This document shows, piece by piece, positions 1,040-28,580 of a stretch of DNA of 64,000 bases. The stretch is from a virus, in the IMG/VR virus record IMGVR_UViG_3300012936_000003, positions 39,801-103,800 of that record; one strand, 5' to 3'. The position numbers and the translations under genes are program-made. Under the pieces are notes generated by a model. The model searched no databases and was not told the DNA's origin. It saw nothing but the letters and a program-made list of their open reading frames with translations. Within the stretch, counting starts at the first letter, position 1. The number at the start of each line of letters is the position of its first letter.

Positions 1040-4000
1040 CTAGCATGGTGACCAGTTAACGTCCTTGCTCTTACCAGAGAACCCTAAGTTTCTAAAAACA
1101 CGTCTTTTGTGTTTTGCAACGGGGGAACATCTAAATTTACTATCGCTGTGAATCTTCAGCATCGTGGTTTCCCAAGTCTCGCCAGCAGGCAAGTTGCCTG
1201 CATATTGAAAGTGCCACCATTCGGATCCCATCGTGTTTGAACTACAATTTTTAAAATAACTCTTTCTTCCGCCAATTGGCTTATAATTGAATGCTCTAAA
1301 TAGTTGCGTAAGATTAATAAAGTTGCCAGTAACTTGTTTTATTATGGGCTCTCCCTTTGTTCCTCGTGGGCAAACTCGTGCATCCAGAGTTAATCTTTCA
1401 ACCTTGTGTCCTTCATACTCTGTACCGGGCTCTTTGTTAGAGCGTGCCCAAACAACCCACATTCTATTTCCGGGGTATCCCCCTTCTGGATCGTATGTTA
1501 CCACGAATTCACACTCGTTCAAATTCGCCGACGGATAAAGACTGCCAGCATGTGTGTAAATATCAAACGCCATGAATGTGTAGTGGAAAGATGTGGTGCT
1601 TCTGTTTTTATTATTTGGATCATAATTTGCGAGACCACGACCGGTGCCACCCGAAGGTAGAACGCCACCAAGTTCATTAAGAACCTTCTTAACTCCAATC
1701 ATGTCGTTCGCTGCATCTTCTCGCATGTATGCGTTGTTGCCGCCCTTACCTGCACAGAAGTCTGTTCGGATTGCGTCAAACTTAATCTTCACTTTTTTCG
1801 CCTTTGGTTCTGACAGTGGAACCCCTTCTCCTTGATATGTAGGGTTAGGAGTAGATGGACCACCGCTGAATGCGCCGCCACCGCCGTAGCCGCCGCCGCC
1901 AGAGCCGCCAGCGCCACCACCTCCAGCACCGCCTGCACCGCCGCCGGGTGAACACCCACCTCCATTTGTCGGAGTCGTACCTCCGCTGCCAACCTGTCCT
2001 GACGGTCCTTCCGGAGCCGGTTTTGGTGGTTCTGGTGGGGGAGGAGGAGGCTCTGGTGCTTTGTATTCTTCCCAGTAAGTCAGACCCCCTTTGAAATAAG
2101 CAATTAATTTTTGACAAGGATCAACATAATCCCCAAAAACCTGTGGAACCTGATAATCACGCTGGGGTATAAAATCGCCTGCCGCTGTTTTAACAATAGC
2201 TGGCTTGCCTTCGCCAGCCTTGCAGGGTAGAGCCTCCGCAGATAAATATGGTTTATCAGCATCGCTCATTCCGTTTTGATCTGTAACGATCAAATACGGG
2301 TGTACGGGTGGCATTGGACCACCCTTTTTTCTACTCCTCAGTATATTCTCTGGTGATTTTTCCAGCCACTCGTAAAATAAATCTCTTGGAGTCTTTTTCG
2401 CTTCTTCGCTTTTATTTTCTTCTTTGTTATCTTTAACTGTCGTAGCCCCCTCCGTTTTTGCTTTTGGATCTTCTTTTTCAGAATCAGCCTTTGGGTTAGG
2501 GTCTGTCCTAGTAACTTCTTGTTCTGCCACGCCGGTCTCAGGATTGATCAAACCAGAAATGGAGCCTTTGAGTTTTCCAATAAAACTCGTTTCTTCTTTC
2601 TTTTCGCCGCCTTCAGCGGCTGCTCCATCACTGGTAGTTGCTTCAATGTCTTGCCAACCTTCCGGCTTTAAATCTTTGAACAACGTCGGGCAAAGCTGTT
2701 TTGCCAGTGTGGGTGTCCAAGGAATAAGTGGTCTGCCGTTTGAATGGGGAATGTTGTGCTTATTACACAACTCAATGCACCCAGCCCACGCTTTCTGCAT
2801 TTCTTCAGGCTCATAAACAGCCACAAACATCTTAGAACGCACTTTTTGATGCCAATATGGAAACAGGTGCGATCCTACACCGCCGAAGCTACCGCCCGAC
2901 TCAACCGTCCGGAGAAGACCTCCCGGTCCAATAAACGTAGTCAAAATATGAGTCCCGCCGTGTGGTCTTGGGTTTCTCTGTTCCCGAGGAGTAACTGGTG
3001 AGTTGTGTGACAAAACTTTGTTAGCCTCTGTAATCTTTGCACGGGAACCAATAAAAATCTGATCACCGGGCATAACTGGTGGGTGGTCGGCAGCACCCCA
3101 CTCTGTGTTTGGGTCTGTGTTTGGGTCTTTAATACAAACTAAACTTCTAGCCTGACCACGACGATAGTTAGACACGGCGCAATGGTTGGGACCATTGAAA
3201 CCATATCCATTACCCATGTAGTCACGACCAAAACTTCCATTTGCACGACCTTTCATAGCTGGACCCCAACCCGTGATTCCATACACCACTGAGTGCCATG
3301 GCAAGTCAATTGTGCTACCCTCTGGGACGCAGCCTTTTTCTTGACCTTCCGACAAGTATCCCTTACCTGTCCAGCCACGGAATCTAGAAATCTCTAATCC
3401 ATTAAAATTTGTGTCCTTGCTCATCATAAGCTCTACCATGCACCTTGACAAGTTTGTGAAACCAGAACAATCAATTCCACCCTTTTCATAAAACCAATGT
3501 TTGCAACCCCATCCGTAAGGTCTACCACACTGATCTTCAGCCACTAGACGCTGGGCAAAGATAATTCTTTCATGGTAGGTCGGTAAGCTATTGACACATC
3601 CGATGCCAATATTTGCACTAACGGCAACACCCCTGCCGCCCTTCTCAACATAACGAATAAAAGCCGGTCTGTATAGGTGCGCTTTTCCGTTAGCTTTTGA
3701 GTTTGGTGGGTAAGATGGTGTCGTAGTTTGAAAGCAATTCTCGCACGTCTGAGGCGTAGAAGAACCAAAACTTGTAGCTGGTGGTAGTGGTCTAGACTTT
3801 TTAGGGTGTGAATTACAAACCTGCTTTTGTTTAGCTAGGGGCGCATAAGCCTGAACTGGAAACTTTTTATATACCTCAGCGGCATTGGCTGCTGCTAGTT
3901 TTTGAAACTCAGCCGTGTATTCAACCGCCTCACCGGGAGCGCCTGTTGGACCTCCACCTCCGCTGCCGGGACCGCCGCCGACTGGACCGTTAGCTGCATC

Positions 4001-22638: not shown

Positions 22639-23253
22639 CTAGATAATCTCGTCAATCAGTCCATAACTTAAACACTTTTCTGCGTCCCACCACAGGTCAT
22701 GTTTAAGAATCTTATCTAGTTCTTTTTTTGGAATCTTTGTGTGTTCTTCATAAATTTCTTTAATGACCTTCATGAAATTGTCACAGTTTTCCATGTCATC
22801 TTTAATTTCTTCATACTTCCCCCAAAAACCGGAAGAAAGCTGATGAATAAGCATATAGGCGTGTTTATGCATCTGGCGATGACTGGCACATACACTCATA
22901 ATAGTACCAGCAGATGCAGCGCATCCATCAATAACTGATGTTACTGGTGTCTTTGATTTTAGAATATAATCAGAAGAAGATAATCCAGCAAAAACACTTC
23001 CACCGTATGAATTGATGTGTACAAAGATTCTTCCGGGATCTGTGCTTAGGGCGACAGCCCTGTTCTGAAGACTTACGTCTAGACTATGTAATGCCTTATT
23101 AAGTTCTAGGTTCTTAGCCCTGCTTACTTCTGAATAAAAATAGATTCTGTTATTGACAGTCTCTACCCTGTTGTTATCATCTGAAGAAGCATTTTCAGAT
23201 CCGCAAATTGCAGATTCTTTCTTTGAACTTAACCAGTGAATATCTTTTTTCAT
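22639..23253 (-). CDS. clpP: ClpP-like protease subunit
   Basis: INSYGGSV, GCAASAG (Ser), MLIHQ (His), GLIDEII. Confidence 0.88.
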   Translation of the reverse strand: MKKDIHWLSSKKESAICGSENASSDDNNRVETVNNRIYFYSEVSRAKNLELNKALHSLDVSLQNRAVALSTDPGRIFVHINSYGGSVFAGLSSSDYILKSKTPVTSVIDGCAASAGTIMSVCASHRQMHKHAYMLIHQLSSGFWGKYEEIKDDMENCDNFMKVIKEIYEEHTKIPKKELDKILKHDLWWDAEKCLSYGLIDEII

Positions 23254-23280: not shown

Positions 23281-23357
23281 TGGCACGCCCGAGAGGACTT
23301 GAACCTCTAACCCTCGGTTTAGAAGACCGATGCTCTATCCAGTTGAGCTACGGGCGC
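23281..23357 (-). tRNA. tRNA-Arg(TCT)
   Basis: GCGCCCG..TCGGT-CT-TCT-AA-ACCGA..GGTTCAAGTCC..CCA. Confidence 0.95.
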
Positions 23358-23370
23358 ATATCTTTCTATT

Positions 23371-23399
23371 AATATAACACGAGTTGCAGCAATTGTCAA
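23371..23399 (-). promoter_or_regulatory. Sigma70 promoter for tRNA-Arg/clpP/tRNA-Pro
   Basis: TTGACA-17-TATATT. Confidence 0.75.
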
Positions 23400-23471: not shown

Positions 23472-23642
23472 TTATTCTTCTTCTACAGCGTCTTTAGCTT
23501 TTCCTAGTAGCTTCGCAACTGATGCACGAAGTTTTCCCACAGGACTAATCATGTGCTCTAAAATAAGACCGGTGCTTAGACCAATGGTCAGAGTAATTGA
23601 ATGAGCGGCTACGAATTCTACAATTTGGTTTAAAGTTTCCAT
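23472..23642 (-). CDS. Small membrane protein
   Basis: METLNQ.. with GAGG RBS just 3' of tmRNA; one hydrophobic helix. Confidence 0.55.
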   Translation of the reverse strand: METLNQIVEFVAAHSITLTIGLSTGLILEHMISPVGKLRASVAKLLGKAKDAVEEE

Positions 23643-23662: not shown

Positions 23663-24031
23663 TGGTGGAGGTGGTGGGAGTTGAACCCACGTCCGCAATA
23701 GTTTTAATATCAAGTCATTCACAAGTTTATTTAGTTTACTATCACAAACTAACAAAGATAGACAGAAAATCCCGGTGCTTACTGCCCTGTTGCACTCCAC
23801 CTATAAATAGGGAACCATTTTGGTTTTGTTTGTTTCAGTGGAACCACCCACTTAATCAGCTTTGGTTACAAGGTTGCTGATCACCCCGTCGCATCAATAC
23901 TGTTTAAGCAGCAAGTGCGAAGTCAACGTTGTCGTTGGCATTTAAAGTTTTGCTACACTGTCAAGCTATGTGTTGCCGTTAGCTACTTGCACTCTCAACC
24001 TCTACTACCCCGTCAAATCCACGTCACCCCC
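23663..24031 (-). ncRNA. ssrA: tmRNA, tag (A)ANDNVDFALAA
   Basis: Acceptor GGGGGTG/CACCTCC-ACCA with G3:U; T-arm GGTTCAACTCC; tag frame 23939-23904 after TAAAT. Confidence 0.95.
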
Positions 24032-24358
24032 GTTAATGTATTGTTCAATATTGAACTTCTTATATAGTTGTCTGAATCTTTTTGGTGTGAGACCCAAGAA
24101 CCTACTTGCTTCTGATTTTGTCTTAGCAGAAGACACCGCAAATAATAGTAGTGATTCTTTGATCATGTCTTGAAGTGAATACCATATTGGAAAACCATAG
24201 AACTTATTACCTGCTGCTCTAGCACTTAGTTCTAGCTTCATGGCGATGATTTCTTCAAGAGTTAGTGAGTTTAGTAATACTTCTAAATCATATGAGAGTC
24301 TTTTCTCTTTTTTTAGTTTCCTAATTAGAGAAAATCTCTTTACATTATTTGAAGACAT
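24005..24358 (-). CDS. Fis-like helix-turn-helix protein
   Basis: TKSEASRFLGLTPKRFRQLYKKFNI; 3' end overlaps tmRNA. Confidence 0.65.
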   Translation of the reverse strand: MSSNNVKRFSLIRKLKKEKRLSYDLEVLLNSLTLEEIIAMKLELSARAAGNKFYGFPIWYSLQDMIKESLLLFAVSSAKTKSEASRFLGLTPKRFRQLYKKFNIEQYINGGDVDLTG

Positions 24359-24370
24359 TAGTATACCAAC

Positions 24371-24643
24371 TTATTCTTCTTCGGATTGAGCTTCTTCTTC
24401 AACAGGCTGTTCTTCTGCCTGTGGTTCCTCTTGTGCTTCTTCTGCTTCCACAACTTCTTCTTGTGGTGCAGCTTCAACCTCAACAGGTTTCACAGACTTT
24501 GCCTTGCGTCTCCTTTTTGGTTCAGCTTTAGGTTTTTCTTCAACCTTAGCTTCTACCTTTGGAGCCTCTGCAACTTGAACCGCCTCTTGAGACGCTGCTC
24601 TTTTATTTGCTTTCTTTAGTCTTCTTACTCTTGGACTAGGCAT
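24371..24643 (-). CDS. Low-complexity basic/acidic protein
   Basis: 90 aa K/E/A-rich with AAGGAG RBS. Confidence 0.55.
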   Translation of the reverse strand: MPSPRVRRLKKANKRAASQEAVQVAEAPKVEAKVEEKPKAEPKRRRKAKSVKPVEVEAAPQEEVVEAEEAQEEPQAEEQPVEEEAQSEEE

Positions 24644-24695
24644 CGTTTTGTTCTCCTTTTTTTTCTTTTCTCTTTACTATCTTTGTATAGTTAAG

Positions 24696-24724
24696 ATTAT
24701 AGCATATTTTTTTTCAGATGTTAA
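24696..24724 (-). promoter_or_regulatory. Sigma70 promoter of the HTH-tmRNA operon
   Basis: TTAACA-17-TATAAT with extended TG. Confidence 0.7.
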
Positions 24725-25625: not shown

Positions 25626-28580
25626 TTAAGCTCCTACGTTATATGTCTTCTGGCTACCGCCCCCGAAATTATCTGTCCTGAATTCGTCTTTTCTCATGAC
25701 AGTGATAATTTTAATTTTGTCTGGACCTTTCTTCATATCCAAGGCAGCAATAACGTTTAGTGCTGGAACCTTGTTTGACTTACCCTTCATTCTAATGTGA
25801 AAGGCTTCCCCATTCTCAATTTCTCCGTTGGCGTAATCATTCATAATTAGTCCCAGAGATCTGTCAACAGCCGAAATAATAGCATCTTTTGAAATTTTAT
25901 GACCACCACCTCCGGGCTTCGTATGTCTGAATCTTCTTTCTTCACCGTGTTTTGATGGGATTAGTTCCATGTCTTCAATATCAAGAATAACGGAACCAAC
26001 TTTTAGAACTTTTGATTGTCCACCAAAGTTCTCATACCCCTCTTGTAGTAGAATGTCTTCAAGGATTTCGTTAACCACATTCTCATCAACCATTGATTTG
26101 TAGCTGACTTTTGGAAATTCATTCGCCATGGAAATAAAATCTTCAAAGTTCGCTTTAACACGAACGCTCTTGATAGTGTTCTTTGAATCATCAACTAGAA
26201 GCGCAAACCACCTGTGGTGTCCGTCAACCAAATAATCATCTTCTGTGACAAGAACAGGTTTTGAATTTGAGAGTTCGTCAATAGATTTCTTAGCCAACAT
26301 GCCCTTCACCTTATCAACATTAATCTTTGATTGTGAAGGTTTTAGATCATCAACGGTCATGGCGACAGTTTTTGAATCTACACCCTTGTTAGTTTTTAAC
26401 CATTGCACGAATTCTGTCATATCGCTAGATTTAATTTGAGGCATCTCCTCTCTTGGAATTCCAACATCGGTTTCTACATCAATTTGATCGGATTCTTCTT
26501 CCAATTCTTCTTCTTCGTCCCATGGGTCATATTTGTTTGTCCTCTTTGAGACTCCAACACTGCCTTGCACACCGACAACACTCCCACAACCACCAGAGAC
26601 ATTTAATTCTTCTAGGCTTTCTGAAATAAGCTGGATGATTAAACGTGAGGATTCTTGGATTTCTTCTTTATCTTTTGGTGTTAGTTTATTCATTAGTGAT
26701 TCTGCTTCGCCCTTTAAGGAGTCTGGTAAATATTCAGTAAACGTTTCAATATCACCTGATGAGATAGCAGACCTCATAGTGCTTGCACTTAAAGGCTCTC
26801 CCGTGCGGGAGTCTGTGAATGCACCGCCCGATACATTAACTGTGTATTCTGGACCTGCTAAAACGGTAACGCCTTCGGCAGCATATTTCTGCGCCTTGTC
26901 ACTGAAGCGACTGTCGTCTCCCCCTTTGTTAGAAACACCGAGCACGACCGACTCTCCGGGTTGTGCCCAATCTGGGTTCTGTTCTTCGTTGGCTACAAAC
27001 TTAAACGTTGCCCCAACGGGAGAATTAACCGGAGACTCTAGAACCTTTACATTTGTCAACCCTGCTGAGTTCAGATAAGGTTGCCAAAGCTGATAAGCCA
27101 TGTCAAACCCCATTTCTCTGCCGTCGTCTAGTTTTCTCGGCAACGGAGACATAAATACAATAACACGCTTCGCCATCTTTGCATATTCTGCAACCATAGC
27201 TAGATGACCACGGTGAGGTGGCTTAAACGCCCCCGGTACAACCGCAACATCCACTTCTGCACCTTCTTCACTCAGTACACCAAAATATCTATCGTTATCT
27301 CTCTGTTCCACGTCTTCTTCTTTAACCATGGCGGGAATATCGCCCCTTCCATACTTAAATAGTCCCAAAATCTGGTTTATCGGCGCAAAATTGCCTGTAA
27401 ACTTATAAGTTACCCCATCGTAGTCAAAAACGAAGCCTTCAGATGCTGTAGACACGTTCTCAACAGATTTTAACTTTTTTAAATGTTGATTTAGGATTTT
27501 CATGGCTGCTTCGTTGTTTGAGCCCTCAATTGCGGCGATTGCGGACGATACTTCGCCCCTTAGCCTCTCCACCTCTCTTGTGTTGTCCAAAATGAAGGCA
27601 CTTTGCAACCCACGCAACATTTCAACGGAAAAATCATGAATAATTTCTTCAACAGGTTGAATTGCAGCTTTTCTTAGCTCTTTTTCGCTTTTAATGATGG
27701 CTCTTACGATTTCTTTCTGTTCTCTGTCCAAACCTTTGACAACTTGAGTGAATTTTGTTCCATCTTTCATAAGTCGCCTGATAATAAGCTGGTGTACAGC
27801 CTCATCAACGCCCGGAGCGGATTGTTGGACGTGAGGCTTCAATCTTTCAATCATCCACTGGTTAATTGTAGCGGTATCTGAGAGCCCCACGGAAGTCACA
27901 GCGGAATCTAGTGAGTCAATGGCATCCTGAAGTGCTTCATCGTCCTCAAGAGCCTCTAAGCGCCTCACAGCGTTAATCTGAACAGTATAATCGTCCTCGG
28001 CTGTAGCTTGTTGCATTTGTTCAAGGGCAGATTGCAAAACTTTGGCGTTTGCTGACACATCTTTTGTATTTTCTCCGTCCTTGACCTTCTCGCCGGTAGC
28101 TTTATCGTATTCTGCGTGCCCGACTTGGTGAATCACTAGACTTTTCGTGTCATAGTTAACCACATTCGGAGATCTCGGGTCCATAATCTCTGCATTATAA
28201 TAAATATTTGCATCTGGACCGAATATATTAATTTGTGTTTCTGGATCTAGGGATCTGACAGCTTTTTCAAACGTTTCAAAGGATTCTACGAAGGTTTTAG
28301 TTAGTTCTCCACGACCCTCAAACTTTGCGGCGAGTTCTTCAGCCGTTAAACCGCCTTGTTTGATGTTTCCTTTGTTTCTTGCAGCACGTGCGTTGCCATT
28401 CTGGACCGAATAAGAAATAAAAAGGTTTTGACCGTCTGTTTTTTCGGTTCCTTCAATCTCTCCGTTGGATGCTGCTGTAAATATCTCTTTTATTTTTGCA
28501 AAAGTCAGTTCACCGTTATCATATAGGTGATTCATATGACCCGCAACACCGCCTTCGGTCAAAAAAACGTTCGTGCCCAT
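25626..28580 (-). CDS. Multidomain protein: ATP-dependent ligase-like + HIGH nucleotidyltransferase + ParB/Srx + BECR-like domains
   Basis: EKTDG..EGFVF..YKF; GAFKPPHRGH..LSASTMR; LKPSQ..LVDGHHRW; SKHGEERRFR..IITV. Confidence 0.65.
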   Translation of the reverse strand: MGTNVFLTEGGVAGHMNHLYDNGELTFAKIKEIFTAASNGEIEGTEKTDGQNLFISYSVQNGNARAARNKGNIKQGGLTAEELAAKFEGRGELTKTFVESFETFEKAVRSLDPETQINIFGPDANIYYNAEIMDPRSPNVVNYDTKSLVIHQVGHAEYDKATGEKVKDGENTKDVSANAKVLQSALEQMQQATAEDDYTVQINAVRRLEALEDDEALQDAIDSLDSAVTSVGLSDTATINQWMIERLKPHVQQSAPGVDEAVHQLIIRRLMKDGTKFTQVVKGLDREQKEIVRAIIKSEKELRKAAIQPVEEIIHDFSVEMLRGLQSAFILDNTREVERLRGEVSSAIAAIEGSNNEAAMKILNQHLKKLKSVENVSTASEGFVFDYDGVTYKFTGNFAPINQILGLFKYGRGDIPAMVKEEDVEQRDNDRYFGVLSEEGAEVDVAVVPGAFKPPHRGHLAMVAEYAKMAKRVIVFMSPLPRKLDDGREMGFDMAYQLWQPYLNSAGLTNVKVLESPVNSPVGATFKFVANEEQNPDWAQPGESVVLGVSNKGGDDSRFSDKAQKYAAEGVTVLAGPEYTVNVSGGAFTDSRTGEPLSASTMRSAISSGDIETFTEYLPDSLKGEAESLMNKLTPKDKEEIQESSRLIIQLISESLEELNVSGGCGSVVGVQGSVGVSKRTNKYDPWDEEEELEEESDQIDVETDVGIPREEMPQIKSSDMTEFVQWLKTNKGVDSKTVAMTVDDLKPSQSKINVDKVKGMLAKKSIDELSNSKPVLVTEDDYLVDGHHRWFALLVDDSKNTIKSVRVKANFEDFISMANEFPKVSYKSMVDENVVNEILEDILLQEGYENFGGQSKVLKVGSVILDIEDMELIPSKHGEERRFRHTKPGGGGHKISKDAIISAVDRSLGLIMNDYANGEIENGEAFHIRMKGKSNKVPALNVIAALDMKKGPDKIKIITVMRKDEFRTDNFGGGSQKTYNVGA

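Follow-up and report, generated by a model that had tools for sequence, protein, structure and literature searches.

A helix-turn-helix-like gene that ends inside a phage tmRNA gene: a probable by-product of genome compaction in large marine phages

What becomes of a protein gene whose stop codon lies inside a stable RNA, and does such an arrangement serve a purpose? The question is raised by a viral locus analysed here within a stretch of 64,000 nucleotides (nt) (the window; positions 39,801-103,800 of IMG/VR record IMGVR_UViG_3300012936_000003, which is 103.8 kb long and estimated to be 57% complete), in which a helix-turn-helix (HTH)-like open reading frame (ORF) runs into the gene for transfer-messenger RNA (tmRNA). 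A preliminary description of this DNA proposed that each maturation of the tmRNA leaves the HTH message without a stop, making the protein a feedback sensor of trans-translation. We conclude that the overlap probably arose as a side effect of genome compaction within a polycistronic unit of protein and stable-RNA genes, and that a regulatory purpose of the stop-less message is unlikely, because most of the family has an ordinary stop and a message cut shortly past a stop would be open to 3′ exonucleases as well. The elements at issue are as follows:

23663-24031, minus strand: one-piece, full-length tmRNA gene (ARAGORN and Rfam RF00023, with identical ends)
24005-24358, minus strand: HTH-like ORF of 117 amino acids (aa), ending ...GGDVDLTG-TAG, with no stop ahead of the first nucleotide of the tmRNA (G1)
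24005-24031, minus strand: overlap of 27 nt, in which tmRNA nt 1-27 are the codons GGDVDLTG plus TAG and make up the acceptor-stem 5′ strand and the start of helix P2
24371-24643, minus strand: Lys/Glu-rich ORF of 90 aa with a GGAG-type ribosome-binding site, the first ORF past the promoter-like site
24696-24724, minus strand: sigma-70-type promoter-like site, TTAACA-17-TATAAT with an upstream TG (11 of 12 consensus matches)

The tmRNA matched Rfam RF00023 with 110.9 bits against a cut-off of 47, over model positions 1-374 and without truncation, and its tag reading frame as given by ARAGORN, ANDNVDFALAA, has a hydrophobic ..LAA end. Direct reading of the sequence gave a tRNA-Ala-like acceptor stem of 7 base pairs, including G3:U, followed by an encoded ACCA; because stem and ACCA fix the ends of the tmRNA, G1 is position 24031, and it coincides with codon position 1 of the HTH-like ORF. 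ARAGORN, Rfam and direct reading thus bear out the overlap anatomy as first described. Within the tmRNA, the first in-frame stop falls at nt 25-27 in frame 0, at nt 17-19 in frame 1 and at nt 6-8 in frame 2. An ORF that meets no stop ahead of G1 has to terminate at whichever of these lies in its frame. The length of the overlap is set by that stop, so the 27 nt in themselves raise no question of chance.

Promoters were scored by a consensus scan against sigma-70-type hexamers (out of 12). The site at 24696-24724, which had been singled out as the only clear promoter, was indeed the sole strong site ahead of the tmRNA; the second candidate is a weak 9/12 site inside the ORF (24171-24142, minus strand, 111 nt before G1), whose hexamers differ in the related loci L001 and L083 (alignment A3) and are not conserved. 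Another related locus, L033, carries the same hexamers and spacer as the 24696-24724 site ahead of its HTH homologue. The minus-strand site at 24696-24724 is the probable start of a unit that would hold the 90-aa ORF, the HTH-like ORF and the tmRNA; the end of the 90-aa ORF, for which Pfam and PHROG searches gave no match, and the start of the HTH-like ORF are 12 nt apart. No terminator-like site was found on the minus strand scanned from 26000 to 22000, and since none separates the tmRNA from the 56-aa ORF that follows it, the tmRNA would lie within a polycistronic unit. In the clade of relatives to which the window belongs (the window clade) the ORF has no separate stop, and neither a recognisable promoter nor a terminator intervenes before G1. 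The HTH-like gene is therefore likely to be transcribed together with the tmRNA, and it is likely, as had been proposed, that maturation would leave a stop-less HTH message.

The tmRNA would then be made by read-through from the 24724-24696 promoter and released by a ribonuclease P (RNase P) cut at G1, which a chargeable tmRNA needs. Cleavage would have to await a completed tmRNA, since the acceptor stem draws its 3′ half from sequence ~340 nt further on. The upstream fragment would end at 24032, with its stop codon removed and the whole conserved core of the protein still encoded. From established tmRNA biology, ribosomes at the 3′ end of this fragment would be rescued by trans-translation and their chains tagged and degraded, and chains completed before the cut would end normally at the TAG inside the tmRNA. 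Such a chain of co-transcription, cleavage at G1, stop-less message and tagging is likely, and its net effect would be a modest, unregulated lowering of HTH protein yield, with no purpose-built sensor.

Whether the layout is kept can be judged from relatives. ARAGORN was run on each of 80 homologue loci from IMG/VR (L001-L080; homologue match at ~3001-3330 of each), the related contigs spanning 50-195 kb, and a metagenome scan contributed L083 as its sole addition. The INPHARED cultured-phage collection held neither a DNA nor a protein match, and a 30% match in Paenibacillus from a genome contig scan was spurious. A tmRNA gene lies on the same strand directly downstream of the homologue, as the next or next-but-one gene, in 48/80 loci, and tmRNA or tRNA genes lie within 3 kb downstream on the same strand in 64/80, with neither in the other 16; about 30 loci have no tmRNA inside 3 kb, and most loci without a downstream tmRNA have tRNA genes in its place. 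Heading the tmRNA/tRNA clusters is thus a conserved position of the HTH-like family in large uncultured marine phages.

The gap from stop to G1 is -27 nt in L001 (75% identical) and L002 (47% identical) and -30 nt in L083. It is +37 in L033 and L051 and +116 to +150 in several loci, with a maximum of +801; where a tmRNA lies downstream, about 46 of 50 loci place a stop of the gene's own 37-801 nt ahead of G1. Most of the family stops before the tmRNA, the outcome that the preliminary description had associated with a chance overlap. Overlaps were read at the DNA level in the window, L001, L083 and L002, and deduced from protein tails in the clusters P0001-P0009: frame-0 translations of the tmRNA 5′ end form the tails of P0001-P0009 (62-94% identity) and of P0016, nine of these ten belonging to the window clade. 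Some 110 of the 120 listed homologues lack a tmRNA-type tail, and after the core the tails differ in length and sequence across the family, being short, variable and mostly acidic. A quick IQ-TREE tree, in which the placement of long branches is unsure, joined the overlap forms in one clade (99% in the Shimodaira-Hasegawa-like approximate likelihood ratio test, SH-aLRT) and set the form of L002, the only other lineage with an overlap, apart; the long-branch clusters P0010 and P0015, which have no tmRNA-type tail, nest within the overlap clade, a placement that shares this uncertainty. An IMG/VR search for the DNA of P0010 returned distant relatives only. Conservation of the overlap holds for the window's own clade (nine tails, L001 and L083) and does not extend to most of the family.

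The same loci suggest how the overlap arose. In the ancestral state, which most relatives would have kept, the HTH gene would end in its own stop after a short acidic tail that varies between relatives, and a tmRNA gene would follow, often with a sigma-70-type promoter just before G1. L033 and L051 carry TTGACA-17-TATACT directly before G1, with the -35 element within the last codons of the HTH gene, and similar tmRNA promoters were seen by eye in L066, L064, L071 and L024. In L002 the read-through tail contains an 11/12 promoter (3314-3342), 15 nt upstream of G1 (3358), and the ORF stops at 3384; since homologues such as those in L028 and L043 stop where the L002 tail begins, L002 has lost its stop, and its ORF extends across the tmRNA promoter and on into the tmRNA gene. 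The window clade lacks the entire segment of tail, stop and tmRNA promoter, and G1 lies one codon past the core. These forms point to a stepwise collapse of the intergenic region, from an own promoter through read-through to deletion of promoter and stop, and in the window clade this collapse would leave the tmRNA dependent on upstream read-through.

Own tmRNA promoters, which are common just before G1 in relatives and lie inside the ORF in L002, also bear on an alternative in which the window tmRNA has a weak or non-sigma-70 promoter of its own in the 3′ part of the ORF and few maturation events cut the HTH message. A 23-nt block located 29-51 nt before G1 (24060-24082, minus strand) is identical in the window, L001 and L083 and contains a TATA-rich segment, and the window sequence TTCAGA-18-AATATT (8/12, by eye) ends 15 nt before G1. 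The 8/12 candidate, however, is not conserved in L001 or L083, the invariant block has no acceptable -35 element at 16-18 nt spacing, and the scan found no site of at least 9/12 near G1 in the window or L001 and no promoter-like site within the HTH ORF of L001. The block was also considered as a recurring phage promoter motif and dropped, its 9-mer not being enriched in the window. Read-through HTH transcripts would moreover still carry the tmRNA and be cut, there being no terminator. A promoter belonging to the tmRNA itself, which the preliminary description named, in internal form, as a finding that would speak against its proposal, is present just before G1 in several relatives; for the window we consider it unlikely.

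The reading of the overlap as a by-product of compaction is also supported by the way other genes in these phages meet stable RNAs. In many relatives an unrelated, previously undescribed family of small ORFs (66-90 aa with a core of ~66 aa, starting MWKVYK and ending in a basic tail) lies between the HTH gene and the tmRNA, and it too enters the tmRNA: the overlap is 8 nt in frame 2, where a conserved UGA at nt 6-8 serves as the stop, 12 or 27 nt in frame 0, and 37 nt in frame 1; only in L053 and L054 does it stop short, 4 nt before G1. Members of this family, and ORFs that run into tRNA genes, lie at the following positions of their loci:

MWKVYK-family ORFs: L052:3341-3550, L015:3933-4142, L020:3563-3790, L045:3563-3820
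MWKVYK-family ORFs, continued: L055:2282-2515, L060:3442-3675, L075:3558-3794, L053:3341-3547
ORFs of 65-95 aa ending 10 nt inside tRNA-Thr, tRNA-Pro or tRNA-Arg: L011:3915-4115, L057:3910-4107, L083:4211-4498, L022:5457-5660

The AlphaFold model of the MWKVYK family has a mean predicted local distance difference test score (pLDDT) of 93.9 and the order beta-beta-alpha-beta-beta-beta, a beta-alpha-beta domain; the family had no Pfam match, and Foldseek against the PDB gave none at E <=0.001. An ArfA-like nature was rejected for it, given the lack of a Pfam match and a confident beta-alpha-beta fold instead of a disordered peptide. Its overlaps in frames 0, 1 and 2 also bear on the observation that G1 falls exactly on a codon boundary, which is correct for the window; three frames are possible, however, and the position at a boundary is not conserved. 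Among 39-42 non-redundant loci, an upstream ORF of at least 60 aa crosses 16/39 tmRNA genes, 14 of these cases being credible. Of 46 tRNAs not preceded by another tRNA, five are overlapped by an upstream ORF, mostly by 10 nt (stop at tRNA nt 8-10), and a further ten have a gap of 0-9 nt to it, which brings those with a gap of <=9 nt to 15/46 altogether; in L001 the starts and stops of protein genes overlap too. In these genomes, then, genes generally sit close against stable-RNA genes, and since another gene family, all three frames and ordinary tRNAs are involved, tight packing and not a dedicated sensor is indicated.

The variety of gaps and frames bears equally on a suggestion that translation of the last eight codons gates the folding or maturation of the tmRNA, coupling tmRNA output to the upstream gene. 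Judging from footprint size, a ribosome stopping at the TAG would have to unwind tmRNA nt 1 to ~40, and the leader before G1 has no significant structure (z -0.94). The acceptor-stem 3′ strand, however, is 340 nt further downstream, and folding has to wait until it is transcribed regardless; tmRNA is made without such coupling in relatives whose gaps are 37-801 nt, and neither the frame nor the length of the overlap is conserved across the two ORF families. We regard gating as improbable in the extreme.

The protein that would be affected belongs to a conserved family. The 117-aa ORF is a real gene, as indicated by its 123 homologues at E <=0.001, every one of them from marine metagenomes, and by its confident fold. 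Its AlphaFold model (pLDDT 84.6) consists of seven helices without any strand, and confidence falls to a pLDDT of ~50 in the last block, residues 111-117. The conserved core stops at residue 108-109, one codon before G1 (alignment A1), and a product truncated at G1 would be complete enough to act, the whole core being encoded. The C-terminal helices of the model appear to resemble, weakly, a helix-turn-helix. In Pfam the window protein matched only HTH_28 (E 0.09) and did not reach the gathering score for HTH_8 (PF02954); among 33 family members HTH_28 was found in 12 and HTH_8 in 8, all sub-threshold, with a best E-value of 0.0035 for HTH_8. A profile search against the PDB gave Fis (1fip) at E 0.43, and VIA-align of residues 61-105 gave Z scores of 4.5 with TyrR, 4.4 with NtrC1 and 3.9 with Fis, which are under the tool's meaningful level. 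The Fis structure carries an N-terminal beta-hairpin arm, and no such arm is present in the all-helical, strandless model. "Fis-like", as the protein had been called, is a fair label for the motif and not for membership of the Fis family, the Pfam, PDB profile and superposition matches all being weak. Foldseek of the model against the PDB gave no match at E <=0.001, PHROGs held no match for the HTH ORF or its two upstream neighbours, and Pfam showed no similarity of the protein to ArfA or SmpB. It is tied to trans-translation by gene position only.

It can now be asked whether this protein acts as a feedback sensor, that is, a regulator tagged while trans-translation works, accumulating when it fails and then altering transcription of the operon or of other phage genes. 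In one clade the layout is kept and is always in frame 0, G1 one codon past the core would make the truncated product a complete domain, the tmRNA of the window clade lacks a promoter of its own, a gene for a ClpP-family protease lies ~400 nt downstream, and the logic parallels the published cases of arfA and of Carsonella smpB-ssrA discussed below. Three observations weigh against compaction as the whole account and keep the sensor idea alive. The first is the frame: all 12 overlap members of the clade (nine protein clusters, the window, L001 and L083) are in frame 0 despite ~3 small junction indels, which under strict neutrality would be a roughly 1-in-27 outcome, although the count is small and triplet-repeat indels are biased. 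The second is the frequency of tmRNA overlaps (14/39-42), which far exceeds the ~0.2% for bacterial t(m)RNA genes (PMC4131195) and is also above the rate of tRNAs in the same loci. The third is the 23-nt block, which keeps seven consecutive silent positions where the surrounding gene is only ~75% identical at the protein level.

Against the sensor stand the separate stops of most of the family and the tmRNA-less loci, which show that the protein has a function independent of the overlap; for an ArfA-type sensor in particular, the stop-less design is not conserved through the family. The tail-less P0010 and P0015 nest, if correctly placed, in the overlap clade, the overlaps in other frames, in another gene family and on ordinary tRNAs fit packing, and the promoter at 24696-24724 has no operator-like inverted repeat. 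A message cut a few nt after its stop would also be exposed to 3′ exonucleases, so that the overlap may add little. On this evidence a sensor is decidedly unlikely. Less probable again is a broader version in which both the HTH and the MWKVYK families repeatedly gave up their stops, the levels of their proteins would report on trans-translation, and promoter loss made the coupling obligatory in the window clade.

Downstream of the tmRNA the order is a 56-aa ORF, a promoter, tRNA-Arg, a ClpP gene and tRNA-Pro, of which the first four are placed as follows:

23472-23642, minus strand: ORF of 56 aa with a purine-rich ribosome-binding site, beginning 21 nt past the tmRNA 3′ end
23371-23399, minus strand: near-consensus promoter TTGACA-17-TATATT, ending 13 nt ahead of tRNA-Arg
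23281-23357, minus strand: tRNA-Arg(UCU) (ARAGORN and Rfam), the next stable-RNA gene in the cluster
22639-23253, minus strand: ClpP-family protease gene (PF00574, E 7.6e-27)

The site at 23371-23399 exemplifies a stable-RNA gene with its own promoter in the window phage, and in the promoter scan the tmRNA is without one. Proteins tagged by tmRNA are degraded by ClpP-type proteases. No smpB was found in the 103.8-kb record, which at ~57% completeness leaves room for the phage as a whole to carry it. Further upstream, an ORF of 984 aa (25626-28580, minus strand) matches a PHROG cytidyltransferase (residues 556-636), a ParB-like domain (residues 735-795) and a PHROG family of unknown function (residues 693-834), and appears to be a multi-domain fusion.

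The DNA just before G1 showed two further features in relatives. A structured-looking RNA leader lies ~40-110 nt before G1 in L004, L010, L026, L028, L043, L047, L058, L062, L067 and L068 (for example L010:2566-2652 and L058:3348-3425), and also ahead of the small ORF in L055 and L060. Its hairpin loop pairs with the strand preceding a conserved CUAGC in a pseudoknot-like helix, P1, with several compensatory changes, and a second hairpin has a conserved purine-rich loop; RNAalifold recovered P1 with five pairs, two of them with double changes. The leader matched no Rfam family even at E 1, and it is absent from the window. Matches to RF04321 (permuted tmRNA) of 48-65 bits begin 17-85 nt ahead of G1 in loci that the standard tmRNA model matches at full length (L002:3285-3487, L068:3409-3617, L043:3526-3728 and eight further loci), and these are probably secondary alignments driven by the tmRNA 5′ half.

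The closest precedent comes from Candidatus Carsonella ruddii, in which smpB reads into ssrA (Hudson, Lau & Williams 2014, Front Microbiol; PMC4131195, where Mao et al. 2009 are credited). There, tmRNA maturation should yield a non-stop smpB message, which was called a feedback situation, in half of the strains only (PMC4131195). The feedback idea is thus already in print for smpB-ssrA, and what is new here is the phage setting and the other gene. Both cases have a same-strand upstream protein gene with its stop inside the tmRNA in part of the lineages only; the Carsonella gene, however, is smpB, tmRNA's own partner, in a reduced endosymbiont, whereas here an HTH-type gene of a large marine phage is involved. 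Across bacteria, same-orientation overlaps with an upstream coding sequence were counted in 250/115,660 t(m)RNA genes, mostly from few events in close relatives (Table 4, PMC4131195); the phage overlaps share this clade-limited pattern and differ in their far higher frequency. In Escherichia coli, ribonuclease III cleavage of the arfA mRNA gives a non-stop message, and ArfA accumulates only when tmRNA fails (PMC4131195). The proposed logic, in which a message always lacks its stop and tmRNA tags the product, is the same. ArfA, however, is a ribosome-rescue factor whose non-stop design is family-wide; the protein of the window is HTH-like, ordinary stops prevail in its family, and RNase P would do the cutting.

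Phage tmRNA genes are known from the mycobacteriophage Bxz1 group and Bacillus phage G (PMC4131195) and from the OM43 phage Melnitz and pelagimyophages (PMC9004378). Like these, the gene in the window is complete, lies in a large phage near tRNA genes and would share its operon with protein genes. Unlike that of Melnitz, a two-piece tmRNA behind a glutamine riboswitch, it consists of one piece, lacks any leader element that Rfam could detect, and has its 5′ end overlapped by the preceding gene. Mixed operons of mRNA and tRNA that are split by RNase P include E. coli secG-leuU and the tRNA cluster of phage T4. In these, as proposed for the window, a stable RNA is freed from a polycistronic transcript and leaves an upstream mRNA fragment with an unprotected 3′ end, but the upstream gene retains its own stop codon, unlike in the window clade.

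Should the phage use the stop-less message as a signal, it would have a simple read-out of the ribosome-rescue state of its host, and the locus would be a second natural case of the ArfA kind. The descriptive value of the locus is that it makes visible the stepwise collapse of a gene pair, HTH and tmRNA, in phages where overlaps between genes and t(m)RNA genes are far commoner than in bacteria, and that it identifies a conserved and previously undescribed gene family heading the tmRNA/tRNA clusters of abundant uncultured marine phages.

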